From contig SHWG01000002.1 of assembly GCA_009693905.1 (NCBI GenBank), positions 1 through 41,116 of the forward strand: DNA of 41,116 nt, given 5' to 3'. Shown here one piece after another: positions 2,204 to 37,471 of this stretch. Source of the DNA: Rhodospirillales bacterium. Lineage in GTDB: Bacteria; Pseudomonadota; Alphaproteobacteria; Rhodospirillales; 2-12-FULL-67-15. Below the pieces are notes generated by a model, which did no database searches, was not told the origin of the DNA, and saw only the letters and a list, made by a program, of their open reading frames with translations. A program made the position numbers and the translations under genes. Every line of letters starts with the position of its first letter. The stretch's first letter is position 1.

Positions 2204-3381
2204 GGCTGGTCTCTTTCGGCGGCGGTCGCGGGGATGAGGGCGGCAACGGCGTCGGCCAGCGCGCGCGCCGCGTCGGGGCGGGCCAGGGTCCGGGCGAGGT
2301 TTGCGGCGCGGGCGAGCCCGCTTGGGTCGGCGAGCCGGCGGACCAGAAGCGAGGCTAGGTTTTCGGGCGTGAAGTCGGCTTCGGCGATCGTCCAGGCGGC
2401 GCCGATATCCGCGAGCGCGCGGGCGTTCGCGCTCTGGTGGTCGTCGGCGGCGTGCGCGTAAGGGACCAGGAAAGCGGGCCGGCCGAGGGCGGCGATTTCG
2501 GCCACCGTCGAGGCCCCGGCGCGGGCGATGACCAGTGCGGCCCGCGCCATGCGCTCCGGCGCGTCGGCGAAGAAGGGCGCGAGTTCCGCCGCGACGGCGA
2601 TGGCGGCGTAAGCCGCGCGGGTCCGTTCCAGATCCTCGGGCCGGCACTGTTGCGCGACGCGAAGATGCCGGCGCAAGTCCTCGGGCACCCGCGCGATGGC
2701 CGCGGGGACGACGTCGGCGAAAATCCGCGCCCCCTGGCTGCCGCCGAGGATCAGCAGCGCGACCGGATTTCCCGCCTCGGGAGCCCGGTAGGGTTGTCCC
2801 GCCAAGGCCGCCACTTGGGGACGCACCGGCATGCCGGTGCGCACGGCGCCGGCCGCCGTCGCCCGAGGCAACCCTTGGGTCGCGGCAAACGAGGTGGCAA
2901 CGCGGCCCACGCCGCGCGCGAGCAGGCGGTTGGCGCGGCCGAGCACGGCGTTTTGTTCGTGGATCGCGGTCGGGAGTCTTCTAAGCATCGCGGCGAGCAC
3001 GGTCGGAAACGAGGCGTACCCGCCGAAGCCGACCACGGCGCTGGGCCCGAGCCGGCCGAGCAGCGCGAACGCCTGGACCGTGCCGAGGCCGAGGCCGAAC
3101 ACGGCGCCCGCCCGCGCCCACGGGCTTTTGCCGGCAAGCGGGCCTCCGGCGATACGATGCGTGCCCATATCGCCGCCCGCGCGCGCAAGCGAATGTCCGC
3201 GCGCGTCCGTGACCAGGGCGAGCTTGAACCCGCGGCTTGAGAGTTCGGCGGCGAGCGCCTCGGCCGGGAATAGGTGGCCGCCGGTGCCCCCGGCCGCGAG
3301 AACGACGAGCCCGCCGGTCGTGCACTCGTCGTGCGAATGCACGCCTGCCGGCGTGACGCGCGCAAACCCTTGTGTCGTCAT
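2200..3381 (-). CDS. murG: Undecaprenyl-PP-MurNAc-pentapeptide GlcNAc transferase MurG
   Basis: [16 protein letters not shown] motif. ATG 3381 overlaps the ftsW stop (ATGA). The first ~20 codons are encoded by a palindromic mini-element (3326-3360). Confidence 0.92.
3326..3360 (-). repeat. Palindromic mini-element, 'HSHD' module, copy in the murG 5' codons
   Basis: TCGTCGTGCGAATGCACGCC-TGCC-GGCGTGACGCG (CACGCC/GGCGTG stem). Encodes [13 protein letters not shown]. Confidence 0.85.
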
Positions 3382-7075: not shown

Positions 7076-8605
7076 TCAGGCGCCGTTGTTCGCGGGCGGT
7101 ACGAGCAGAGCCTGGACGATCGTGCCGGTCCGGCTTCCGGCCGATCCCTTGACCAGCACGACATCGCCCGGACGCAAGGCCGCGACCACCACCGGCGCGA
7201 GGCTCGCGGCGCTTTCGGCGTGGCCGCCCCGCATCGCCGGCGGCAGCGACTTCGCGAGCATGGCCATGTGCGGGCCGGTGGTAAAGACAAGATCGAAGCG
7301 GGCCTCACGCAGCGGGCCGCTCAAGGCGGCGTGGTGCGCGGCGCTTTCGCCCCCGAGCTCCAGCATGTCGCCGAGCACGGCAATCCGGCGCCCGCCCGGC
7401 CCCGGCGCGACCGCGCCCGCGGCGGCCAGCGCCGCGGCCATCGAGGCGGGCGAGGCGTTGTAGCTCTCGTCGATCAGGAGAAACGCGCCGGCGCCGATGG
7501 CGACGCGATGACGCTCGCCGCGGCCCTTCATCGCCGGCACGTCGGCCAAGCCGGCGGCGGCGGCGGCCACGTCGGCGCCCAGCGCGTACACGGCGGCGAG
7601 CACGGCGAGGCTGTTCGCCACCCAATGCCGGCCGGCGAGGCCGAGCCGGTATGCGATCCGCCGGCCCGCGACCTCGGCTTCCACGTTCGAGCCGTCGGCG
7701 TGAAGCTCGAAGTTGCGCGCCCGGACGGTGACCTCGGGCCGATCCACCGCGCCGAAGGTGACGATGCGCTCTACCCCCGCGGCGCGGGCGGAAGCGACGA
7801 GCCGGGCGTAATAGGGGTTTTCGGCGGGCAGCACCGCCGCGCCGCCGGTCTCGACGCCGAAAAAGATTTCGGCCTTGGCGTCGGCGATCGCCTCCAGGCT
7901 GGGAAAGAACTCGATGTGCACCGGCGCGATCGCGGTCACGACCGCGACGTTCGGCCGGACCATCTTGACCAGCGGCGTGATCTCGCCCGCGTGGTTCATG
8001 CCGATTTCGAACACGCCGAAAGCGGCGTCGCTGGGCATCCGCGCCAGGCTCAAGGGCACGCCCCATTGGTTGTTGAAACTGCCGACGCTCGCCGTCGTCG
8101 AGCCTTGGCGGGAGAGAACATGGCGGAGCGCCTCCTTGACCCCGGTCTTGCCGACGCTGCCGGTGACGGCGACGACGCGCGCGTCGGCACGGGCCCGCGC
8201 GGCGCGACCGAGACCCTCCAGCGCAACTTGGGTGTCGGCGACGCGAACCAGGGCGGCATCGGGGCCCAATCCTTCGGGCACGCGCGCGGGCTTAACCCCG
8301 CGCGCATCGAATGTCGCGCCCCTACCGTGGCGGGCGACCACGGCCGCCGCCGCGCCGCGCTTGAAGGCATCGGCGACGAAGGCGTGGCCGTCGAGCCTGG
8401 GGCCTTTGAGGGCGACGAATAAATCGCCCGCCTGGATCGTGCGCGTGTCGATCGAGACGCCGCTTGCCTGCCAGTCAACGGAACCCACGTCGCCCCCGGT
8501 GGCGAGTGCGACTTCGGCCGCGGTCCAGAGAATGGGGCGCCGCGCGGGCGAATCCCCGCGCGCATTGAATGACGCGCCCCTGCCGGGGCGCCTGGGCGCG
8601 ATCAT
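7076..8605 (-). CDS. murF: UDP-MurNAc-tripeptide--D-Ala-D-Ala ligase MurF, carrying two in-frame repeat insertions
   Basis: [13 protein letters not shown]-loop. 509 aa, longer than usual. ATG 8605 overlaps the murE stop (ATGA). Inserts encode [17 protein letters not shown] (N-terminus) and [17 protein letters not shown] (internal). Confidence 0.93.
8283..8330 (-). repeat. Palindromic mini-element, 'GRGA' module, internal to murF
   Basis: The reverse complement CCACGGTAGGGGCGCGACATTCGATGCGCGCGGGGTTAAGCCCGCGCG matches the cofC copy at 42/48 positions (hand alignment). Encodes [16 protein letters not shown]. Confidence 0.9.
8541..8590 (-). repeat. Palindromic mini-element, 'GRGA' module, murF 5' codons
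   Basis: The reverse complement CCCCGGCAGGGGCGCGTCATTCAATGCGCGCGGGGATTCGCCCGCGCG matches the cofC copy at ~41/48. The CGCGCGGG/CCCGCGCG stem is kept while the loop differs. Encodes [16 protein letters not shown]. Confidence 0.9.
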
Positions 8606-10083: not shown

Positions 10084-11941
10084 CTACGCCCACGATGGCC
10101 GCGGCCACACTTTCGATCGGGCGCGGGCGCGCGGGAGAATCGTCATGCGAATGCATGCCTGACGGCATGACGTGCGAAGGCGCGCCTAACGGCGTGACGC
10201 GCGCGCTGTCTGTCGCGCCCCTACCGGGGCGCGGTGCCGGCATCGGCGGATTCTCGATGGCGTCGTCGGGCGCGAGGCCGACGAGCGGCCCGAGCCGCTC
10301 GACGATGCGGCGCACCACGGGCGCGGCGATCCAGCCGCCGGTGGCGAGGCCGTGGGTCGAGGCGTTGCCCTTGGGTTCGTCGATCATGGCGAGCACGACG
10401 AAGCGGGGCTCGTGGATCGGGAACGCGCCGACAAAAGACGCTATGCGCGCGTCCCGGCGATAAACGCGACCCATCTGCTTGTCGGCGGTGCCGGTTTTGC
10501 CTCCGACCGTGTAGCCCTTGGCGTCGGCGTTCTTGCCGGTGCCGTGGACGACGGCGAGGCGCATGAGCTCGCGCATGGCGCGCGAGGTTTCGGCGCCGAT
10601 CGCGGCGGTGCCTTCGGGCACATGGCCGGGTTCGCGCTTCAAGATCGTGGCCGGGCGAAGCTGGCCGCCGTTGACGATCGCGGCGACGCCGGCGGCGAGT
10701 TGCAACGGGCTGACGGCGAGGCCGTGACCGTAGGCAATGGTCATGGTGTTGATCTCGCGCCAGCGCGCGGGCGCGAGCGGCGCGCCGGTTTCGGGCAGTT
10801 CGACCGGTGGGACCTTGAGCATCCCGAAGCCGTCGAGATATTCCCGCTGCAACCGCGTGCCGACATCGAGCGCCATCTTCGCCGCGCCGATATTGGAGGA
10901 AAAGGCCAGGATTTCGGGCACCGACAACCAGCGGTTCTTGCCCTTGTAGTCGGTGATGGTGAAACGGGCGATCTGGATCGGGCGGCTGGCGTCGTAGCCG
11001 TCGCGCAAGCCCACCGTTCCGGAATCGAGCGCCATGGCGACGGTGAACAGCTTGAAGGTCGAGGCCATTTCGTAGACGCCCTTGGTGACGCGGTTGAACG
11101 CGGATTCGGTTCCGGCGACGGCGGAAGAGTCGTTGGCGTCGAAGTCGGGCAACGAAACCATCGCCAGCACCTCGAAGGTCTGGACGTCGAACACGACCCC
11201 GGCGGCGCCGATGGCGCGGAACTCCTTCATCTGGAGGGCGAGCTCCTCGCGCAGGATATCCTGGATGCGAACGTCGAGCGAAAGCGCGAGCGCGCCTGAG
11301 CCTTCGGCGAGGCGGGCGTCGAACATCCGTTCCACTCCGGCGATGCCGCGCCCGTCCACGTCGGTGAGGCCGAGCACGTGCGCCGCCGCGCGTCCCTGCG
11401 GATAGACGCGGCGCTCGGCAACCTGGAACTCGAGGCCGGGAATGCCGAGGCGGTTGGCTTCGTACTTCTGGCGCGGGGTCAAATTGCGCTTGATCCAGAC
11501 GAAGCGGGCGCGGGAAGCGAGCTTGGCCTCGATCTGCTCCCGGTCGAGATCGGGAAACACCAGGGCGAGCTTGGCGGCGGCCTCGGCCGCGTCCAGAACC
11601 TCGCGCGGGTTGGCGTAAAGCGAAACGACCGGCAGGCTGGTGGCCAGCAGCACGCCGTTGCGATCGACGATCTCGGCGCGCGCGGTCGCCGCGTGGGGAG
11701 GCGTCGAGCGGGCGATGCGCGGCTCGCCGCCCTTGAGGACGGCGACGTCAACCAGGCGCACGGCGACGGCGACGAAAGCGAAGGCGATCACCGCGCCCGC
11801 CACCAAAAGACGATTGCGGCCGGTTTCGAGGGCCTGCAAGCCCTGGCCCTCGAAGGCAAAGGTCCGGCTGGCGGCCGCGGCAATAATGCCGGGGACAGGC
11901 GTTTCGTTTCCTCGGTTCCTAAACCACGCACGGCGGATCAC
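10061..11941 (-). CDS. ftsI: Division transpeptidase FtsI (PBP3), C-terminal tail encoded by a repeat
   Basis: ASTFK, SSN and KTGT penicillin-binding motifs, with an N-terminal TM helix. Start chosen at GTG 11941, which forms a GTGA overlap with the ftsL stop. The track's longer ORF (to 12106) would overlap ftsL by 168 nt. Confidence 0.88.
   Translation of the reverse strand: MIRRAWFRNRGNETPVPGIIAAAASRTFAFEGQGLQALETGRNRLLVAGAVIAFAFVAVAVRLVDVAVLKGGEPRIARSTPPHAATARAEIVDRNGVLLATSLPVVSLYANPREVLDAAEAAAKLALVFPDLDREQIEAKLASRARFVWIKRNLTPRQKYEANRLGIPGLEFQVAERRVYPQGRAAAHVLGLTDVDGRGIAGVERMFDARLAEGSGALALSLDVRIQDILREELALQMKEFRAIGAAGVVFDVQTFEVLAMVSLPDFDANDSSAVAGTESAFNRVTKGVYEMASTFKLFTVAMALDSGTVGLRDGYDASRPIQIARFTITDYKGKNRWLSVPEILAFSSNIGAAKMALDVGTRLQREYLDGFGMLKVPPVELPETGAPLAPARWREINTMTIAYGHGLAVSPLQLAAGVAAIVNGGQLRPATILKREPGHVPEGTAAIGAETSRAMRELMRLAVVHGTGKNADAKGYTVGGKTGTADKQMGRVYRRDARIASFVGAFPIHEPRFVVLAMIDEPKGNASTHGLATGGWIAAPVVRRIVERLGPLVGLAPDDAIENPPMPAPRPGRGATDSARVTPLGAPSHVMPSGMHSHDDSPARPRPIESVAAAIVGVGGGVASH
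10140..10231 (-). repeat. Composite mini-element (GRGA head plus duplicated HSHD module) forming the ftsI 3' tail
   Basis: TCGTCATGCGAATGCATGCCTGACGGCATGACGTGCGAAGGCGCGCCTAACGGCGTGACGCG followed by ...GTCGCGCCCCTACCGGGGCG. Encodes PGRGATDSARVTPLGAPSHVMPSGMHSHDDS. Confidence 0.85.
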
Positions 11942-12288: not shown

Positions 12289-13349
12289 GCCGCTCTCCGT
12301 CGGCGGGCTTGCGCGCGTCGCGCCGGAAGGCGCGCCATCAAATAATGCCGGCTTCGCCGGTGGGCGCACGACTTCGCGTCGTTCCACGGGGGCGCATCGG
12401 TGCGTTCGGCCGCGCGCAAGCGGGCCGAACGCGCGCGCGGATTGGCGGCGACCTCGGCCTCCGACGGACGCTGGATCCCGGCCATGAGCCTGAAGGTCGG
12501 CGGGCGCGCGGGCCCCTGGGGAACCGGGCTGTGGCGCGACGGCCCCGGAACGCGCCCGGAGCGTTCGGCAAGAAACGTCTTTACGATCCGGTCTTCGAGG
12601 GAATGGAAGGAAACGACGGCCAACCGTCCGCCCGCCTTGAGCAGGGTTTCGGCGGCGGCGAGGCCGCGCTCGATCTCGCCCAACTCGTCGTTGACGTAAA
12701 CGCGCAGCGCCTGAAACGTGCGGGTCGCCGGGTCGATGCCGTCGCGCGCGCGCGGCACGACCCGGCGCACGATCTCGGCCAATTCAAAGGTACGCTTAAG
12801 CGGCGCCACGGCGCGCGCCGCGACGATGGCCCGCGCGATGCGTCCGGCCAGGCGTTCCTCGCCGAAGCGGCGAATGATGTCGGCGAGTTCCGCCTCGGGC
12901 AGGCGGTTGACGGCATCGGCGGCGGTGGCTTGGGTGGAATCGGCGGCGTTCATGCGCATATCGAGCGGTCCGTCGGCGCGAAACGAAAATCCCCGCTCCG
13001 GATCGTCGAGGTGCCGCGACGAAACGCCGAGATCGAAGGCGATGCCGTCCACACGCTTCACGCCTACGCCGGTTAAAAGGCCGACCATGCCGCCGAAGCG
13101 ACCGGAGACGAGGGTGAGGCGGCCTTTGAACCGGCGGGCGAGCGGCGCACCCGCGGCCAAGGCTTCGGGATCGCGATCGATGCCGAAAATCTTTGTCCGC
13201 GACCGGGCTTCGAGGAGCGCGGTGGCGTAACCGCCGCCGCCGAAGGTCGCATCGACGTAGATCGCGCCGGCCTTGGGCGCGAGTCCCGCAAGCACTTCGG
13301 CAAGCATCACCGGGACGTGGCGGGGCGGGGCGGAGCTGGGCGCGGTCAT
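12285..13349 (-). CDS. rsmH: 16S rRNA (cytosine1402-N4)-methyltransferase RsmH/MraW
   Basis: HVPVMLAEVL, DATFGGGGY and DLGVSS motifs. Start at ATG 13349 preferred over ATG 13430 (a 27-aa non-homologous extension); the start is uncertain. Confidence 0.9.
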   Translation of the reverse strand: MTAPSSAPPRHVPVMLAEVLAGLAPKAGAIYVDATFGGGGYATALLEARSRTKIFGIDRDPEALAAGAPLARRFKGRLTLVSGRFGGMVGLLTGVGVKRVDGIAFDLGVSSRHLDDPERGFSFRADGPLDMRMNAADSTQATAADAVNRLPEAELADIIRRFGEERLAGRIARAIVAARAVAPLKRTFELAEIVRRVVPRARDGIDPATRTFQALRVYVNDELGEIERGLAAAETLLKAGGRLAVVSFHSLEDRIVKTFLAERSGRVPGPSRHSPVPQGPARPPTFRLMAGIQRPSEAEVAANPRARSARLRAAERTDAPPWNDAKSCAHRRSRHYLMARLPARRAQARRRRAA

Positions 13350-13548: not shown

Positions 13549-13595
13549 GACGATCGGGGGGGTATTTTTGAACCCCGGCACTAGTTCGAATAAAT

Positions 13596-13990
<395 letters not shown>

Positions 13991-14698: not shown

Positions 14699-15582
14699 GA
14701 GCCTTCGCCCGCGCGCGGCGGCGCGGGCCGCCAATCCGAAAGACCGGGGGCGGCGGGCGATTCTGTATTTTGCCCGCCTAGCGGCGGGACCGCGCCCCCG
14801 ACCAAGCCCCGCGGCCGGTCGACCGGCGGGCTCGGCGCCAGGCGCCCAACGATCGGGAGCTTGAGCGCGAAATCGAGAGGGTCGATGCCGAAAACAAGAC
14901 CGAGAATATTGACCTCGACCCCCTCCTCCACGCCGGCGAGAACGCCGAGGAGCCCGAAGAGCGAGACCTGCATGCCGGTGCCCGACGGCGCGGACGCGAG
15001 CACGCCGCCGTTCGGGAGATAGTCCTTGCCGATGGCGGTCGGCGGCAAATCGAGGCGAAGCTCCGGCACCTCGCGCGCGACGTGGGCGACGAAGGTGTTG
15101 CTGTTGGGCCCCGGCCACAGGCCGTAATCGCCGTTGTGGGGATAGCCCCTGGCCGCCGTGTCGATCTTGGCGATCACCGCGTCCACGCCCGGTCCGCGCA
15201 AATCCACGAGCAGTTCCGGCGTCGCGCCGAACCAGCGCTGGTCGGCGGGCCGCTTGTCGATCACCAGGCCTTCGCCGCCGCGCGCCACGCGCCAGCCAAT
15301 GAGTTGATAGACGGTGAAGCTGTCCGCGTCCGTCGGCTTGACCGCGATCCAGGTGTGCACGCCGAACGCGCCGCGCCAGCCGTAGGCGCGCGCGGCATAG
15401 ACCTGGGCCACCGCTTCGCGCACGATCCCGGGGTCGGGGGCGATGCCGGCGGACTCGCGGTTGGCCGTGCGCCAATCGGCGCCGACCGTGCGCGAAACCG
15501 CGACCACGGCGACCGCGATCAGGCCCACGGCGACAATCCAGGTTCCGATGGTTGCCATAAGCCGAACTTTCCCACGCTTCAT
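14695..15582 (-). CDS. Membrane-anchored DUF3750-like protein
   Basis: 295 aa with an N-terminal TM helix (IGTWIVAVGLIAVAVVAV). The GYPHNGDYGLWPGPNSNTF motif is recalled as typical of DUF3750. Family assignment is from memory, not searched. Confidence 0.6.
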   Translation of the reverse strand: MKRGKVRLMATIGTWIVAVGLIAVAVVAVSRTVGADWRTANRESAGIAPDPGIVREAVAQVYAARAYGWRGAFGVHTWIAVKPTDADSFTVYQLIGWRVARGGEGLVIDKRPADQRWFGATPELLVDLRGPGVDAVIAKIDTAARGYPHNGDYGLWPGPNSNTFVAHVAREVPELRLDLPPTAIGKDYLPNGGVLASAPSGTGMQVSLFGLLGVLAGVEEGVEVNILGLVFGIDPLDFALKLPIVGRLAPSPPVDRPRGLVGGAVPPLGGQNTESPAAPGLSDWRPAPPRAGEGS

Positions 15583-20031: not shown

Positions 20032-20219
20032 GCGATCATACGGCACACCTCCCCCTCACCCTCCCCTCTCCCCCCGCAAGTGGCGGGGGGAGAGGGTTGC
20101 CCCGCCGGCTTTGCCGGCAACCGTTTTTCGCGCGCGAAGAGCGCGCGAGGGGGGTTGGCGCGGCGCTCGGGCCGCGCCTTACCCGGAGCTGGGTGAGGGG
20201 GGCGATGCCAATCGATCGC
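20032..20219 (+). repeat. Mosaic BIME/MITE-like intergenic repeat, copy A (livK-livH spacer)
   Basis: Terminal inverted CCCCCTCACCC (20051-61) and GGGTGAGGGGG (20191-201), with imperfect outer arms GCGATC...GATCGC. Internal hairpin cassettes: CTCTCCCCCCGC-loop-GCGGGGGGAGAG, GCCGGC-TTT-GCCGGC, CGCGCG-AAGAG-CGCGCG, GGCGCGGC-loop-GCCGCGCC. Confidence 0.85.
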
Positions 20220-23437: not shown

Positions 23438-25863
23438 GGTTTATTCCCCGCCGCGAGCGAATCGTCGTGCGAATGCACGCCGAGCGGCGTGACGCGGCGA
23501 CCGTTTGTTGGCCCGCCTACCGGCGGGACGGCCGCGGCGATCGCCGCGAACACGCGCTTGGGCGACATCGGCGTATCGGTGAGCGTGGCGCCGAGCGGCT
23601 TCAGCGCGTCGTTGATCGCGTTGCAGATCGCCGCCGGCGGCGCGATGGCGCCGCCCTCGCCGATGCCTTTCTGGCCGAACTCGGTCAAGGGCGACGGCGT
23701 GGTCATGTGCACGATTCGGATCGGCGGAATCTCGGGGAATCCGGGCACCAGATAGTCGGCGAAGGTGGAGGCGAGCGGCTGGCCCTCGGCATCGAAGGGC
23801 ACCTCTTCGTACAGCGCCGTTCCGATTCCTTGCGCGATGCCGCCCAGAACCTGCCCTTCCACCACCATCGGGTTGAGCATGACGCCGGCATCCTCGACCA
23901 CCACGTAATCGAGAATCTCGACCGCGCCGGTTTCCGTGTCCACCGCCACGACCACGGCGTGACTGGCGTACGAAAACGTGCCCTGGTCCGACTTCGGCTT
24001 GTAGCCGGCGGTGACGTCGAGGCCGCCCGGGTCCACGTCCGACGGCAGAAGCTGCGGCGCCCGGTACCAGACCCGCGCGATCTCGGCCAACGGCACGTGG
24101 CCCAAGCCGGCGCGCACAAAGCCGTTCTCGAATTTGGCGTCTCCCGGTTTTGCCTGGAGGAGATGGGCGCCGATCTTCGTCGCGCGCTCGACCAGAACCT
24201 TGCACGCCGCCGCGACCGCGCCGCCCCCCATGACCGCCGCGCGCGAGCCCCAGGTGCCGGTCGAGAACGGCGTCAACCCCGTATCGCCGTGCACCACCTT
24301 GATCTTGGAAATATCGACGCCGAGAACCTGGTGCGCGACCTGGGCCAGCGTCGTTTCCATGCTCTGGCCGTGGGATTGCAGGCCGACGCGGATCTCGATC
24401 CCGCCGTCGGGAGTGATGCGCGCCTGGGCCAGCTCGTGTCCGGGCACCATGGGAATGCCCCAGCCGTGATAGACGGCGGTGCCGTGCCCGGCCTGTTCGC
24501 AGTAGATCGCCAAGCCAAGCCCGATCCGGCGCCCGTCCGCCTCGCCTTTCTTTTGGCGCTTGCGGATGCCGGCGAGGTCGATGGCGGCGACGGCCCGGCG
24601 CATCGATTCGGGGTAATCGCCGCTGTCGAAATGCTTTTTGGTGACGTTGACGAACGGCATCTTCTCGGGCGGAACGAGATTGAGAAGCCGGACCTCGTGC
24701 GGCTCGCGCCCGACCGCACCCGCGATCGCGTCCATGATCTGCTCGATGGCGAAGCAGACGCCGGTGCGCGCGACCCCGCGATAAGGCACGATCGGCGGCT
24801 TGTTGGTGCACACCGAAACGGCGTGGCAGCGATAATGAGCGAAGTCGTAGGGCCCGGGCAGGATGCTGCCGACTTGGCCCACCTCGAGGCAGGCCGAGAA
24901 GGGATAGGCCGAATAGGCGCCGGCATCGACGAGGACCCGGGCGTCGAGCCCGAGCAGGCGGCCCGTTGCGTCGGCGTAAGCGGTAATGTCGTAGCGGTGC
25001 TCGCGGGCGTTCGCCGCCGCGACCAGGTGCTCGCGCCGGTCCTCGGTCCAGCGCACCGGATGGTCGAGCGCCCGGGCGAGCCAGGCGGCGATCACCTCCT
25101 CGGCCTGCAACAGCCCCTTCCAGCCGAAGCCGCCGCCGACGTCGGGCGCGATCACCCGGATCAAACCCTGATCGACGCCGAGACACTCGGCCAGACCCTG
25201 GCGGACGATGTGCGGCATCTGGGTCGAGGTATGAACCGTGAGTTGTTCCGCTTGACGCTCCCACACCGCGACCACGCCCTTGCCTTCCAGGGGCACCATG
25301 CACTGGCGGGCCATGCGGATCTGGCGCGAAACCTTGATCGGCGCGCTGGCCGCGATTGTCTCGATGTCGCCCACGACCGTATCGGCTTCGAGAAAGAGGT
25401 TGTCGCTCCAATGATCGTGAATTTTGGACTTGGGCGCGCGCGCGGATTCGAGCGTGTCGGCATTGACCGGCAATTCCTCGAAGTCGATCTCCACCAGGGC
25501 GGCGATATCCTCGGCTTCGGCGCGGGTGCGCCCGACGCAGGCCGCGACCGGCTCGCCGACGAAGCGGACCTTGCCGTCGGCCAACGGCGGCTGGTCGGAA
25601 ATCTTGAATCCGGGAAGGCCCGAGACGGCGCGGATCGGCTTGACGCCCCCCTTGGCCAAGTCGGCCCAGGTAAAGACCGCGCCTTGGTGTTCGGGCGGAA
25701 CACGGATCGCGCGGATGCGGGCGTGCGCGAGCGGGCTCCGAACCAAGGCGATATCCTTCATCCCGACCAGCGCGATGTCGCCCGTGAAGCGGCCGCGCCC
25801 CTTGAGCAGGCGCTCGTCCTCGCGCCTGCGGACCGCCGCGCCCACGCCCATGCCCTCGGCCAT
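23434..25863 (-). CDS. Molybdopterin-binding large subunit (CoxL-like, not the CO-dehydrogenase signature)
   Basis: ATG 25863 is preceded by GGAGGAGG. 809 aa aldehyde oxidase/xanthine dehydrogenase fold. The active-site loop reads VPYRGVART, not AYXCSFR (form I) or AYRGAGR (form II). The C-terminal tail (RRVTPLGVHSHDDS) is repeat-encoded. Confidence 0.88.
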   Translation of the reverse strand: MAEGMGVGAAVRRREDERLLKGRGRFTGDIALVGMKDIALVRSPLAHARIRAIRVPPEHQGAVFTWADLAKGGVKPIRAVSGLPGFKISDQPPLADGKVRFVGEPVAACVGRTRAEAEDIAALVEIDFEELPVNADTLESARAPKSKIHDHWSDNLFLEADTVVGDIETIAASAPIKVSRQIRMARQCMVPLEGKGVVAVWERQAEQLTVHTSTQMPHIVRQGLAECLGVDQGLIRVIAPDVGGGFGWKGLLQAEEVIAAWLARALDHPVRWTEDRREHLVAAANAREHRYDITAYADATGRLLGLDARVLVDAGAYSAYPFSACLEVGQVGSILPGPYDFAHYRCHAVSVCTNKPPIVPYRGVARTGVCFAIEQIMDAIAGAVGREPHEVRLLNLVPPEKMPFVNVTKKHFDSGDYPESMRRAVAAIDLAGIRKRQKKGEADGRRIGLGLAIYCEQAGHGTAVYHGWGIPMVPGHELAQARITPDGGIEIRVGLQSHGQSMETTLAQVAHQVLGVDISKIKVVHGDTGLTPFSTGTWGSRAAVMGGGAVAAACKVLVERATKIGAHLLQAKPGDAKFENGFVRAGLGHVPLAEIARVWYRAPQLLPSDVDPGGLDVTAGYKPKSDQGTFSYASHAVVVAVDTETGAVEILDYVVVEDAGVMLNPMVVEGQVLGGIAQGIGTALYEEVPFDAEGQPLASTFADYLVPGFPEIPPIRIVHMTTPSPLTEFGQKGIGEGGAIAPPAAICNAINDALKPLGATLTDTPMSPKRVFAAIAAAVPPVGGPTNGRRVTPLGVHSHDDSLAAGNKP
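23462..23527 (-). repeat. Palindromic mini-element, HSHD module plus degenerate head, coxL-like 3' tail
   Basis: TCGTCGTGCGAATGCACGCC-GAGC-GGCGTGACGCG is identical to the murG copy except for the loop, followed by ...GCCCGCCTACCGGCGGG. Encodes PPVGGPTNGRRVTPLGVHSHDDS. Confidence 0.85.
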
Positions 25864-30394: not shown

Positions 30395-31216
30395 TTACCG
30401 CCCCACCCCCGCCCCCTTCAACAAATCCACATCGAGCCGGACGCAGTCGCCGCGATAGACCATATCGGCGACGTAGATCGCCAGCCCTGAGCGGTTGACG
30501 ATGGCGCAATGGACCTCGGCGGTCGGCGCGTTCAAGGGGACGCGCAGGTATTCGGCGACTTCCGGGTCGGCACCGCCGATGGTCACGGTGTTGTAGGCGT
30601 GGGCGATCCGGGCGCGCTCATGGTGGACGAGAACCGGCAACGCGGTGTGGGCGAGAAATTCCTCCGGCGCGCGGTCGTAGACGGCGCGGTCGATGTGCAC
30701 CGAGACGACCGCGAACGGCACGCCATCGCGGTACTGGACGCTGCGCAGATACCGGTAGCCGGCGGGCGAATGGCGGCCGTCGCCCGGGCCCAGGCGCGGC
30801 AGCGGCGGCGGGCTCGCGACCGTCACGAACTTTGGCACGTTGACGGCGACGATGCTTGCGAGCGAGTCGAGATCGTTGGCGAGCCGGAGCCAGCGCCGCT
30901 CCGGCACCGCGCGGGCGACGAAGGTGCCCTTGCCCTGCTGGCTCCACACCAGCCCTTCCTTCACCAGGAGATCGACCGCCTGGCGCACGGTCACCCGCGC
31001 CACCTGAAACTCGCGCTCCAATCCTTCGAGGGTCGGGAGTTTTTGCCCAGGGCCAAAGGCCCCGTCCTCGATCCGGCGGCGAAGCAGGCCGGCGAGCTGG
31101 ATGTAAAGGGGAACGCGGCTGCGTCCGAAGGCGCGGGCGAGAGAGGCATTTTTCGTCCGCTTACGCGCATTATTCGATGCGCCCCTATCGGGGCGACGGC
31201 GCTTGGCGGGGATCAT
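30395..31216 (-). CDS. GntR-family transcriptional regulator (HutC/UTRA-like effector domain probable)
   Basis: Internal ATG 31216 (ATGA overlap with the pxpC stop). PLYIQLAGLLRRRIEDG...LPTLEGLEREFQVARVTVRQAVDLLVKEGL is a winged HTH. The N-terminal codons RPDRGASNNARKR are repeat-encoded. Confidence 0.85.
   Translation of the reverse strand: MIPAKRRRPDRGASNNARKRTKNASLARAFGRSRVPLYIQLAGLLRRRIEDGAFGPGQKLPTLEGLEREFQVARVTVRQAVDLLVKEGLVWSQQGKGTFVARAVPERRWLRLANDLDSLASIVAVNVPKFVTVASPPPLPRLGPGDGRHSPAGYRYLRSVQYRDGVPFAVVSVHIDRAVYDRAPEEFLAHTALPVLVHHERARIAHAYNTVTIGGADPEVAEYLRVPLNAPTAEVHCAIVNRSGLAIYVADMVYRGDCVRLDVDLLKGAGVGR
31164..31195 (-). repeat. Palindromic mini-element, GRGA module (short), gntR 5' codons
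   Basis: CGCGCATTATTCGATGCGCCCCTATCGGGGCG; compare CGCGCATTGAATGACGCGCCCCTGCCGGGGCG at 8559-8590. Encodes PDRGASNNARK. Confidence 0.75.
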
Positions 31217-34578: not shown

Positions 34579-34781
34579 GATCGAATGGAATCATCCCCCC
34601 TCACCCGTCAGAACCGCTTTGCGGTTCGACCGGGTAAGGCGCGGCCCGAGCGCCGCGCCAACCCCCCTCGCGCGCTCTTCGCGCGCGAAAAACGGTTGCC
34701 GGCAAAGCCGGCGGGGCAACCCTCTCCCCCCGCGAGTAGCGGGGGGAGAGGGAAGGGTGAGGGGGGTGGTGCCATTCGATC
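34579..34781 (-). repeat. Mosaic BIME/MITE-like repeat, copy B (npdG-cofE spacer), inverted relative to A and C
   Basis: Outer inverted arms GATCGAATGG (34579-88) and CCATTCGATC (34772-81). 34631-34733 is a 103-nt perfect match to the reverse complement of copy A. Carries an extra hairpin cassette GTCAGAACCGC-TTT-GCGGTTCGAC. Confidence 0.9.
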
Positions 34782-34806
34782 GCTATCCACTCCGGGAGAG
34801 TGACTC

Positions 34807-35568
34807 GTGCCCGCCGTCACCCTGATCCCGGTTCCCGGCCTGCCGCTGGTCCGGGCCAACGACGATCTTTCCCAACTGATCGCCGCCGCGCTGGAGCGCG
34901 AAGGACTCGGCCTCGAAGACGGCGACATCGTCGCGGCAGCCCAGAAGATCGTCTCCAAGGCGGAAGGGCGGCAGGTCGCGCTCGCCACCGTCGCGCCCGG
35001 ACCCCGCGCCCGCGAAATCGCCAAGACCGTGGGCAAGGACCCGCGCCTGGTCGAATTGATTCTTTCCGAATCGCGGGCGGTGGTGCGAACCGCCCCCAAC
35101 GTCCTGATCGTCGAGCACCGGTTGGGGTTCGTGATGGCCAACGGGGGCGTCGATCAATCGAACGTCGACGCCAAAGGCGGCGAGGCGGCGCTGCTGCTGC
35201 CCCTCGACCCGGACGGGTCGGCGGCGCGCCTGAAAGTATCGCTCGAAGTGCGTTATGCCTGCCGGCTCGGCGTCGTCGTCACCGACAGCTTCGGCCGGCC
35301 GTGGCGGAACGGGGTCGTGGGCGTTTGTCTCGGCGCCGCCGGAATCCCAGCGCTCCGCGACCGGCGCGGGTCGCCCGACTTGTTCGGCCGGGCCTTGCGC
35401 GTGACCGAGATCGCGATGGGCGACGAGATCGCCGCCGCCGCGTCGCTTTTGATGGGCGCGGCCGACGAGGGGATTCCGGTCGTGATCGTGCGCGGGTTCA
35501 AACTCGAAGGCCCGGACGCTCCCGCGGCGGCGTTGATCCGCGACCGCGCCCTCGATCTGTTCCGCTGA
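34807..35568 (+). CDS. cofE: Coenzyme F420-0:L-glutamate ligase CofE (stand-alone, no nitroreductase domain)
   Basis: 253 aa with KIVSKAEGR and ANGGVDQSN motifs. GTG start with GGGAGAG 6 nt upstream. Confidence 0.88.
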   Translation: MPAVTLIPVPGLPLVRANDDLSQLIAAALEREGLGLEDGDIVAAAQKIVSKAEGRQVALATVAPGPRAREIAKTVGKDPRLVELILSESRAVVRTAPNVLIVEHRLGFVMANGGVDQSNVDAKGGEAALLLPLDPDGSAARLKVSLEVRYACRLGVVVTDSFGRPWRNGVVGVCLGAAGIPALRDRRGSPDLFGRALRVTEIAMGDEIAAAASLLMGAADEGIPVVIVRGFKLEGPDAPAAALIRDRALDLFR

Positions 35569-35590
35569 GACGGCATCAACTTGACTGGAC

Positions 35591-35711
35591 CCCCCCTCAC
35601 CCTTCCCTCTCCCCCCGCGACTTGCGGGGGGAGAGGGTTGCGCAGGGCTGGCGCGGCGCGAGCCGCGCCTTATCCGGTCGAACCGCAAAGCGGTTCGACG
35701 GGTGAAGGGGG
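35591..35711 (+). repeat. Mosaic repeat, copy C (cofE-cofD spacer), short variant
   Basis: CCCCCCTCACCC...GGGTGAAGGGGG ends. Contains the CTCTCCCCCCGC/GCGGGGGGAGAG hairpin, the GGCGCGGC/GCCGCGCC hairpin and the GTCGAACCGC-AAA-GCGGTTCGAC cassette. Lacks the central cassettes of A and B. Confidence 0.85.
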
Positions 35712-36719: not shown

Positions 36720-37471
36720 GCCGCGCGTTTCCCGTTTTCGCCCTGGTTCCGGTTCGCGCTTTTCCCGAAGGCAAAAAGCGGTTGGCGCCGCTCATGTCAC
36801 CCGAAGAAAGGGCCATGCTTGCGAAAACCATGCTCGAAGACGTGCTCGATTGTCTCGGCCGTTCGCCCGCCGTCGAGGGGATCGCGGTCGTGACCGACGA
36901 CGCGGACGCCGCCGCGCTCGCCCTCGACCATGGCGCGCGGGTGCTGCCCGATGCGCCGGAACCGAACGGCGGCCTCAACGCCAGCCTCGCCGGCGCCGCC
37001 GCCTGGCTTCGCGCGACGCACCCCGGCAGGGGTGCATCATTTGATGCGCGCGGGGTTAAGCCCGCGCGACCCGGACGGGCGACGCTCATTATCCATGCCG
37101 ACCTGCCCGCCGCGACCCCCGAAGACATCGCCGCGTTGGTCGCCGAAGACGCCGAAATCGTGCTCGCCCGCGCCCACGACGGCGGGACCAACGCGATGCT
37201 GCTCCGCCCCGGCGTTTCGCTCCCGTTCGCGTTCGGGCCTGAGAGTTGCGCCCGCCACCAGGCCGCCGCCCGCGCCGCCGGGCTTTCGGTCGCCGTCGTC
37301 GAGCGCCCCGGACTTTCCCTCGACCTCGACCGGCCGGAAGACGTCGCGGCGTACCTCGCCCGAGCCGGGAACTCGCGCACCCTTGGCCTGTTGCACCGGC
37401 AGGGCATCCCGGCCCGGCGGCGCGCATTAAATGATGCACCCCTACCGGCGCGCGCGAGGACGGATTCATGA
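36716..37471 (+). CDS. cofC: CofC/FbiD-type guanylyltransferase of F420 biosynthesis, with two repeat insertions
   Basis: ALVPVRAFPEGKKRLAPLMSPEERAMLAKTMLEDVL and IIHADLP motifs. 251 aa versus roughly 210-225 for characterised homologues (from memory). ATGA overlaps at both ends. Confidence 0.85.
   Translation: MSRAFPVFALVPVRAFPEGKKRLAPLMSPEERAMLAKTMLEDVLDCLGRSPAVEGIAVVTDDADAAALALDHGARVLPDAPEPNGGLNASLAGAAAWLRATHPGRGASFDARGVKPARPGRATLIIHADLPAATPEDIAALVAEDAEIVLARAHDGGTNAMLLRPGVSLPFAFGPESCARHQAAARAAGLSVAVVERPGLSLDLDRPEDVAAYLARAGNSRTLGLLHRQGIPARRRALNDAPLPARARTDS
37021..37068 (+). repeat. Palindromic mini-element, GRGA module, internal to cofC
   Basis: CCCCGGCAGGGGTGCATCATTTGATGCGCGCGGGGTTAAGCCCGCGCG, with sub-palindromes GCATCA-TT-TGATGC and CGCGCGGG-GTTAAG-CCCGCGCG. 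Encodes [16 protein letters not shown]. Confidence 0.9.
37421..37448 (-). repeat. Palindromic mini-element, GRGA module (short), opposite orientation, cofC 3' codons just 5' of the fbiC SD
   Basis: CGCGCATTAAATGATGCACCCCTACCGG is the reverse complement of the head of the 37021 copy. Read on the other strand it gives [12 protein letters not shown]. Confidence 0.85.

Follow-up and report, generated by a model that had tools for sequence, protein, structure and literature searches.

Repeat modules in the window

The window is the whole 41,116-nt stretch of DNA analysed here (Rhodospirillales bacterium, assembly GCA_009693905.1, contig SHWG01000002.1, positions 1 to 41,116 of the forward strand). 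It contains genes of the division and cell wall (dcw) cluster, including murG, ftsW, murF, ftsI, ftsL and mraW, as well as coxL-like and coxM-like genes and cofC. Several of these genes carry short palindromic repeats, which are the subject of this report and are referred to below as module A, module B and other, lettered types. Module B (TCGTCGTGCGAATGCACGCC-loop-GGCGTGACGCG, 35 nt) is present in four copies, all on the plus strand; one lies in murG (3326-3360), two overlap in ftsI (Table 1) and one lies in the coxL-like gene (23462-23496). A 28-nt pattern with up to three mismatches recovers exactly these four copies, against 0.00 expected from 100 dinucleotide shuffles. The host genes are encoded on the minus strand, and no minus-strand frame of B has a stop codon. 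Translation of that strand gives a 13-residue peptide near the MurG N-terminus, RVTPLGAPSHVMPSGMHSHDDS in the FtsI tail and RRVTPLGVHSHDDS in the tail of the CoxL-like protein. As the first-pass annotation of the window had stated, the murG and coxL copies are identical except for the loop (TGCC versus GAGC), and the copies in the three genes share one strand and one frame. Its description of the modules as forming the protein termini has to be amended: they sit 2-20 codons inside the ancestral termini, which are retained.

Table 1. Positions of the repeat elements in the window
Feature	Position	Strand	Evidence or remark
63-nt in-frame insert after murG codon 2	3313..3375	+ (gene on -)	B core 3326-3360 and C-type flank CGCGCAAACCC
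Module A without B, 48-nt in-frame insert within murF between AAAAVV and RVPEG	8283..8332	+	orthologue comparison
Module A without B, 51-nt in-frame insert after murF codon 3	8541..8590	+	orthologue comparison
102-nt composite in the FtsI C-terminal tail	10132..10233	+ (gene on -)	empty orthologous sites in L049 and L050; 75-nt version in L048
B unit 1 in ftsI, A-T-A haplotype (CGTCATGCGAATGCATGCC-TGAC-GGCATGACG), GAAT	10140..10174	+	27 nt that L048 lacks
B unit 2 in ftsI, G-type (GAAG, loop TAAC)	10167..10201	+	orthologous to the sole B unit of L048
Right half of module A in ftsI, spacer and hairpin GCGCCCC-TACC-GGGGCG	10198..10231	+	82% identical to the murF copies; hairpin GCGCCCCTACCGGGGCG exact
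C-type repeat, 72-nt in-frame insert 4 codons before the mraW stop	12300..12371	-	L048, L049 and L050 without insert
81-nt in-frame insert at the CoxL-like C-terminus	23449..23529	+ (gene on -)	orthologues 27 aa shorter
Right half of module A (CGCGCATTATTCGATGCGCCCCTATCGGGGCG)	31165..31195	+	motif match
Module A in cofC (gene on +), in the 16-residue frame common to module A	37018..37068	-	sequence match; CofC models split around residues 100-117
Right half of module A just upstream of the cofC stop	37419..37452	+	sequence match

In-frame insertions in the host genes

Comparison with orthologous loci shows, at the level of sequence, that the elements are true in-frame insertions and not run-ons of open reading frames (ORFs). 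Conserved sequence is found on either side of them, which bears out the earlier placement of the modules inside ORFs. Eight insert lengths could be measured by comparison with orthologues, seven in the window and one in the ftsI gene of L048 (75 nt), and every one is divisible by three.

MurG of the window starts with MT, followed by a 22-residue insert segment and then by conserved residues; the conserved MurG model begins at about residue 19-25. The insert-free MurG proteins of L048 and L049 begin MTA(PG)L[V/I]... and have the same ATGA overlap with the ftsW stop, which the window retains (3378-3381) despite the insert, whose 63 nt were measured against L048. The insert of the coxL-like gene comprises an arm, GCGAGCGAATC, the B core, a spacer and a variant hairpin, CCCGCC-TACC-GGCGGG (23512-23527). 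The encoded tail reads ...AAIAAA[27 aa]GNKP up to the stop codon, and six CoxL orthologues (P0122-P0127, 81-88% identical) end in ...AAIAAAGRKP or similar. A terminal G[N/R]KP with a GTGA or ATGA overlap is common to the CoxL orthologues; the start of coxM overlaps in all six, and the window retains both GNKP and the GTGA overlap with its coxM-like gene. The mraW (MraW/RsmH) gene likewise keeps its terminal RRAA codons before the stop and its ATGA overlap with ftsL. The C-type repeat inserted there is 97% identical to a copy in L044 (6082-6151), and in L009 and L023 this repeat has a B unit nested in it. The internal murF insert is absent from L048 and L049; the N-terminal one is absent from L048, and L049 has a different element at that site, a CCCGCC-TACC-GGCGGG element (13243-13258).

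The cofC TGA overlaps the ATG, at 37468, of the next gene, which encodes a radical-SAM CofH/CofG-like protein of 795 aa. The right half of module A near this junction (37419-37471) sits just inside the coupled gene end, a placement like those in ftsI, coxL and mraW.

The ftsI composite

The element in ftsI consists of a left arm, CGGGAGAATC, two B units whose starts are 27 nt apart, a spacer and the A hairpin GCGCCCC-TACC-GGGGCGC. It is bordered by a 7-nt direct repeat, GGGCGCG, at 10125-10131 and 10227-10233, and the first B unit lies directly after a (C/T)GTC tag. The protein tail reads ...PPMPAPRP[GRGATDSARVTPLGAPSHVMPSGMHSHDDSPARP]RPIESVAAAIVGVGGGVASH up to the stop codon, with the insert in brackets. 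Four FtsI relatives (P0003, P0004, P0006 and P0010, 82-88% identical) have no insert and keep both flanks and the terminus; orthologues with and without the element all retain ...RPIESxA...GGGVASH before the stop. The tail exists in four states across orthologues: empty, A only (P0008/L051), A+B (the 75-nt insert with one B unit of P0002/L048) and A+B+B. Judging from sequence, the ftsI pair is not a recent duplication, since unit 2 is orthologous to the single unit of L048 and unit 1 is the additional 27 nt. What had been read as an internal partial duplication is made up of two different B units, one of each of the two haplotypes described below (A-T-A and G-C-G), and these are only about 20/27 identical.

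In a crude FtsI tree, the occupied sites fall in non-sister lineages, which implies either a hot spot or repeated precise loss. In other genomes, different repeat types occupy the FtsI tail and the site at murF codon 3, so that both look like hot spots of insertion. Two further FtsI orthologues, P0007 and P0012, have other repeat types in the tail, with the E-type-encoded peptide PSPPPQGGREFKK...GEGWGGG.

Structure of module B

Module B has a 27-nt repeat unit and a 32-nt conserved core, CGTC-[G/A]TGC-GAAT-GCA[C/T]GCC-TACC-GGC[G/A]TGACG. This core can form two small opposed hairpins that use a common central arm, GCA[C/T]G, and have the loops GAAT and TACC; pairing of either hairpin is about 99%. 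One stem is 5-6 bp long (CA[C/T]GCC/GGC[G/A]TG) and has the loop TACC, TAAC or TGAC; the other is 4-5 bp long ([G/A]TGC/GCA[C/T]) with the loop GAAT or GAAG, all loops being 4 nt in length. The stems are followed by GCA or GCC. Covariation links position 16 to positions 5 and 27 and defines two haplotypes, G-C-G (35-36 copies) and A-T-A (14 copies), either of which is found in several flank contexts. The first stem positions correspondingly read CGTC-AT...AT in the 14 A-T-A copies and CGTC-AC...GT (GT...AC on the other strand) in 36.

The tag CGTC is present in 49 of the 52 distinct copies, although the search pattern left these four bases unconstrained; the rest have TGTC, GGTC or CTTC. The 3′ end bears the inverted tag, GACG, so that a CGTC tag faces outward at each end. 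In sequence, B thus looks like an ultra-compact pair of CGTC-tagged repetitive extragenic palindromic (REP) sequences. A test for a host stem around B, made column by column, failed on account of the variable register.

The repeat family in genomes and metagenomes

The sample comprised the window and 120 loci, taken from a scan of one genome per species and a metagenome scan. The B core was found at 47 genome loci and 68 metagenome loci, which give 95 distinct copies, and the cores are near-identical across genomes. Nearly all genome loci with B come from three related, uncultured alphaproteobacterial metagenome-assembled genomes (MAGs): MIAC01 (‘Rhodospirillales bacterium RIFCSPLOWO2_12_FULL_67_15’), and CAYPQV01 and CAYIQU01 (both ‘uncultured Hyphomicrobiales’). 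MAGs with B are mostly labelled Rhodospirillales or Hyphomicrobiales. No relatives of the composite were found among 72,556 plasmids (7.3 Gb). An Rfam scan of the window gave one match, RNase P RNA, and nothing near significance over the element.

Among the first 55 B copies, 23 carry the module-A left arm, GCG[G/A]GCGAATC, and in 13 the full arrangement is present, with the A hairpin GCGCCCC-TAYC-GGGGCG at a distance of +15/16 nt. The consensus of this composite is GCGCGCGGGCGAATC-GTCGTGCGAATGCACGCC-TACC-GGCGTGACG-CGCGCATTAAATGATGCGCCCCTAYCGGGGCG. The A-B composite is the canonical form, as B stands between the A left arm and the A hairpin at fixed spacing in 13 of the 55, and the ftsI element is the same composite with two B units. 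Elsewhere, B is placed between the arms of C-type, D-type or E-type (CCCTCTCCC...GGGAGAGGG) palindromes, beside a second arm type, GCGAGCGAATC, as in coxL, or alone. The variant hairpin CCCGCC-TACC-GGCGGG, which has the same loop as the A hairpin, occurs in seven copies with their own conserved flanks.

These data support the modular interpretation given by the first-pass annotation, in which the repeats are cassettes of one family: the left arm and the fixed hairpin spacing recur, and 12 of the 13 full composites lie outside the window, in several MAGs, so the cassettes do co-occur beyond the loci first noticed. The shared head is also more than G+C-rich background. Its motif, CCGGTAGGSGSG, has nine matches in the window with up to one mismatch, against 2.77 ± 1.66 expected, and none of 100 shuffles reaches nine. 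The reported joining of this head to B stands for ftsI, where it is the right half of module A with an exact hairpin; in coxL, the supposed head is the stem variant CCCGCC-TACC-GGCGGG, a recurrent subfamily of its own with seven copies.

Some other repeats and features were observed alongside. A further copy of the variant hairpin, CCCGCC-TAGC-GGCGGG, with the subfamily flanks GATTCTGTATTTTG...ACCGCGCCC, lies at 14773-14788 of the window. G/C-rich E-type palindromes (CCCTCTCCCCCCGC...GCGGGGGGAGAGGG) are present at 20051-20186, 34630-34765 and 35591-35641; the two 136-nt copies are 97% identical, in inverted orientation and separated by 14 kb. Overlapping 301-aa ORFs encoded on opposite strands (34783-35705), for which Pfam gave no hit, are bracketed by the copies at 34630-34765 and 35591-35641. 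The RNase P RNA (bacterial class A, RF00010, 302.5 bits, full length) is encoded on the minus strand at 13595-13987, just upstream of the dcw cluster.

Three loci (L004, L014 and L030) from an Acidocella sp. MAG (Acetobacteraceae) have a B core that is 100% identical, CGTC tag included, and have conserved flanks of their own. Di Nocera et al. (PMC3733652) found no CGTC REPs in Acetobacteraceae, and the presence of B there may reflect horizontal spread or mis-binning. The contig of L047 is binned as ‘Myxococcales’; it is probably mis-binned, because its flanking sequences are nearly identical to those of the Hyphomicrobiales MAG locus L016.

Unit-wise gain and loss

Orthologous sites in related populations differ by single units. 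Loci L114 and L016 have an additional A unit (48 and 49 nt, respectively) beside A+B, and the orthologous L101 and L047 have A+B alone; the site in L016 and L047 is non-coding. In the Ogt/MGMT-like ORF, L101 (5540-5780) has A+B (75 nt) and L114 (1040-1320) has A followed by A+B (123 nt). Both inserts are in frame in the sense strand and encode ...SSCEGMPIGMT.... L023 and L085 differ by one 27-nt B unit and one tag substitution.

A switch between A and A+B at one orthologous site (L101/L114 and L047/L016) was considered and rejected, as a fuller alignment traced the match to the neighbouring tandem A unit. A hypothetical empty A form with GAATCGTCGCGCG was not found; every B-less A copy reads GAATCCCCGCGCG, so that A+B represents a separate lineage rather than A with a clean insertion.

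Copies inside genes of relatives

At least 11 of the 95 distinct copies lie deep inside ORFs, with the signature of coding G+C content at the three codon positions (GC1/2/3) on either side. These calls rest on an open frame together with the GC1/2/3 criteria, which replaced calls of GC phase in 120-nt windows, found to be too noisy. The host ORFs in relatives encode ExoIII, DnaX, PlsC, UbiG, Tmk, a LivF-like ATPase, inositol monophosphatase (IMPase), a methyltransferase and an Ogt-like protein. Eight of the deep copies use the frame V[T/M]PxG[V/M][H/P]SHD, which is that of the first-pass annotation; three use SCEGTPxGVT on the other strand, and none uses the two other open, arginine-rich frames. 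Part of this bias arises because the AT-rich A spacer, CATTAAATGATG, puts stop codons in several frames of the composites. The same B DNA is also present between genes, in both orientations, as well as in the second frame.

The unit lengths are divisible by three: 27 nt for B, 48 nt for A, 75 nt for A+B and 72 nt for the C-type repeat; the frames used are stop-free. In all contexts taken together, 18 of 25 A copies are 48 nt and 20 of 24 A+B copies are 75 nt long. Lengths of A or A+B that are not divisible by three are few and are found only outside ORFs.

An exhaustive phmmer search with an element-encoded ORF (P0241) against 1.84 billion representative proteins gave P0245 as the sole other true carrier of the peptide; representatives of 50% clusters, however, seldom carry an insert. 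P0244 was rejected as a carrier, being an unrelated repeat protein. A doubled peptide profile run against an index of 5.8 billion proteins returned no more than 63 candidates and three small ORFs; the word index is ill-suited to this query.

Relation to known repeat systems

According to Di Nocera, De Gregorio and Rocco (2013, BMC Genomics 14:522; PMC3733652), CGTC-tagged REPs have an unpaired CGTC tag (TGTC and CCTC variants are allowed), 8-9-bp stems that usually start with A-T, 4-5-nt loops and a 3-nt tail (consensus CCA). They are mainly alphaproteobacterial, are often paired in opposite orientation and are sometimes nested in other palindromes. Some are in frame within genes and encode the peptides VIPAKAGI, VMPAEAGI and IPASAGMT. 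The Rickettsia repeats RPE-4 and RPE-6 are included among them, and no dedicated transposase is known. The same authors noted in their Discussion that families with shorter stems may have escaped their survey (PMC3733652).

Module B resembles these REPs in its unpaired terminal CGTC tag, short G+C-rich hairpin, 4-nt loop and opposed paired units. It is likewise dispersed, multi-copy, found mainly in Alphaproteobacteria and occasionally nested in other palindromes. It is also read from the tag (GTC A[T/C]G CCG, giving V-M/T-P), so that V[T/M]PxG[V/M]H can be set beside the published V-[I/M/T]-P...G. On the other hand, the two opposed units of B overlap in a common arm to give a 27-nt unit, the tail is GCA or GCC and not CCA, and B regularly joins module A, a two-hairpin element that has no tag, in a composite of 75 nt. 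By its description, the basis on which the families were compared in place of an alignment, B is probably a divergent member of the CGTC-tagged REP superfamily; it is placed there because of the tag at either outer end, which was not searched for, the 4-nt loops and the reading from the tag.

Rickettsia palindromic elements (RPEs; Ogata et al. 2000, 2002; summarised in PMC10969869 and PMC3733652) lie in frame in many unrelated housekeeping genes, encode a conserved peptide and are apparently tolerated. The repeats described here are similar in being palindromic and in frame in functional genes, with empty and occupied orthologous sites and inserts of 3n nt. In contrast to the obligate intracellular hosts of RPEs, the host is a free-living, high-G+C, uncultured alphaproteobacterium; the units are 27-102 nt long, as opposed to about 100-150 nt, the cassettes are modular and nested, and inspection reveals no sequence relationship to RPE families. 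The likeness is one of analogy and not of membership, since host and base composition differ.

The mosaics also recall the bacterial interspersed mosaic elements (BIMEs) of E. coli and the mosaic repeat arrays of Neisseria: a few hairpin motifs and linkers recur at fixed spacing and grow by units. Unlike BIMEs, which are located outside genes, GTAG-tagged and linked to REP-associated tyrosine transposases (RAYTs), they are often inside ORFs. Unlike GTAG REPs and the REPIN-RAYT system (REPINs being REP doublets), B has CGTC as its tag, and GTAG is seen only within some loops. B behaves as RPEs do and has a BIME-like organisation; it is neither a GTAG/RAYT REP nor a miniature inverted-repeat transposable element (MITE), having no terminal inverted repeats beyond its hairpins, no constant junction repeats and a unit of just 27 nt. 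Mycobacterial interspersed repetitive units (MIRUs) are small ORFs of their own between genes and not hairpin cassettes. They reportedly lie at junctions of co-translated operon genes and preserve the stop/start overlaps; the units described here, in contrast, lengthen the flanking genes themselves.

Origin and maintenance of the cassettes

The repeat family, its composite architecture, in-frame insertion, unit-wise polymorphism and the preservation of stop/start overlaps are observed directly. We consider it probable that B, module A and the other palindromes constitute lineage-specific mosaic selfish repeats located in frame inside genes, a new example of the REP/RPE type. In these tightly packed operons, where the stop codon of one gene overlaps the start of the next, the units occupy coding sequence, either within a few codons of a gene end or in a tolerant region. 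Cassettes are gained and lost one unit at a time, B is often nested in or beside other repeats, and A+B (75 nt) is the commonest composite. Mobilisation may take place in trans, via single-stranded hairpin DNA, by a nuclease or transposase, and ectopic recombination or slippage may add to the gain and loss of units. Purifying selection, including selection on translational coupling, would allow only stop-free units of 3n nt to persist in ORFs. The inserts would be translated as short, probably neutral peptides such as RVTPxGxHSHDD, leaving the host protein and the downstream translational coupling intact; we infer their translation from unit lengths divisible by three and from the lack of stop codons in the frames that are read.

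Several points weigh against this interpretation. The structural evidence is thin. As regards stem covariation, one position does covary, with two haplotypes, whereas single-sequence folding is scarcely above shuffled sequences (z = -0.3 to -2.2). In a register-free test, flank pairing around B was 3.9 compared with 3.46 ± 0.19 after permutation (about 2 sd), and only in a subset of copies does B occupy the apex of a host hairpin. The stems of B have 5-6 bp as against the defining 8-9 bp of CGTC REPs, and their first two positions are A-T in only about a quarter of the copies. The step from A to A+B is not a plain addition of 27 nt, as CCC is changed to GTC at the junction. Junction direct repeats vary between 0 and 8 nt (7 nt at ftsI in two genomes, 8 nt at the murF N-terminus), with no fixed target duplication; we take this variability to fit microhomology better. 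Translation of the inserts is deduced, and an in-frame GTG inside the element could be the MurG start. Finally, the analysis revealed no transposase or nuclease; a search of about 0.4 Mb of loci with a RAYT-like query gave no match, which is uninformative.

A bolder version of the selfish-repeat reading, in which the cassettes are palindromic elements adapted to life inside coding sequence, is rather unlikely. It would draw on unit lengths quantised by three, on benign, stop-free frames, on insertion that appears to favour existing repeats and tag-like (C/T)GTC^G sites, and on apparently recent activity, to judge from the single-unit differences between related metagenome populations. The mosaic diversity could instead have come about with no current transposition, if old dispersed copies underwent ectopic recombination, gene conversion and replication slippage. 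This explanation would suit the tandem units with common arms, the flanking direct repeats that would permit precise loss, the replacement (and not clean insertion) seen between A and A+B, and the occupation of the same ftsI site in non-sister lineages. It cannot, however, make copies at new unique sites such as those in murG, coxL, ExoIII and UbiG; the murG and coxL sites are empty in relatives 81-88% identical, and B cores are near-identical across genomes. We regard it as unlikely.

A role as a cis-acting RNA or DNA structure is a slightly weaker candidate still: a hairpin that stabilises or processes mRNA, a modulator of translational coupling, or a binding site of the gyrase/IHF type, as at E. 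coli BIMEs. In its favour, coupled genes of the dcw and cox operons have the elements at their junctions, hairpin conservation includes a compensatory change, the orientation of copies in ORFs is biased 8:3, and such roles of REPs are described elsewhere (PMC3733652). Against this, close relatives lack the elements at the same junctions, which makes them dispensable; Rfam gave no match, folding z-scores are weak and copies are also present deep in unrelated ORFs. Secondary co-option is compatible with the data, yet not required by them.

Classical MITEs, moved by a DDE transposase and having terminal inverted repeats and target-site duplications, would account for the direct repeats at the ftsI and murF N-terminal insertions. 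Those repeats, however, range in length from 0 to 8 nt and match the G+C-rich ends of the element itself; inverted termini are lacking apart from the hairpins, and the 27-nt unit, far under the size of a MITE, nests and multiplies singly. This origin is very improbable.

It is harder still to credit that the elements are intergenic and that long ORFs merely read through them because stop codons are rare at 68% G+C. The modules do lie outside the conserved cores of MurG, FtsI (whose transpeptidase domain extends to about residue 602-615 of 681) and CoxL (the model ends at about residue 800 of 834), and the minus-strand frames of B are all open. Element-free orthologues of FtsI, CoxL, MurG and MraW, however, have the same residues beyond the element and the same stop/start overlap, and the internal copies in murF, ExoIII, UbiG, Tmk and others cannot be run-ons. 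As for the idea that RVTPxGxHSHD[D/E] is a peptide with a function of its own (binding metal, for example, or targeting the protein), kept by selection on the protein and shuffled from one protein to another, the recurrence of one frame in unrelated proteins and the H-x-H-D motif are outweighed by the presence of the same DNA in intergenic positions, in either orientation and in a second frame, by conservation at the nucleotide level that includes hairpin covariation, by the single other carrier among 1.84 billion representative proteins and by host proteins that are unrelated and sites that are tails and linkers, so this idea can practically be dismissed.

Implications

The kind of element is already known, as in-gene CGTC-tagged REPs and RPEs have been described (PMC3733652). 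What the present family indicates is that proteins of this uncultured high-G+C lineage routinely acquire peptide insertions from short hairpin repeats, even the products of essential genes for cell division and the cell wall (FtsI, MurF, MurG and MraW). For annotation, this affects where gene boundaries are called, how orthologues are aligned and the statistics of protein length. The family also extends to a free-living organism the in-frame insertion of palindromes, which is known best from Rickettsia. Where stop and start codons overlap within an operon, the elements appear to be tolerated solely as in-frame units just inside gene ends. Differences of one unit at the same site constitute clean occupied/empty pairs, and these could help to find how CGTC REPs move, a matter left open by Di Nocera et al. 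2013 (PMC3733652). If the elements are indeed adapted to coding sequence, the lineage would be a natural system in which to seek the mobilisation machinery of CGTC-tagged REPs.

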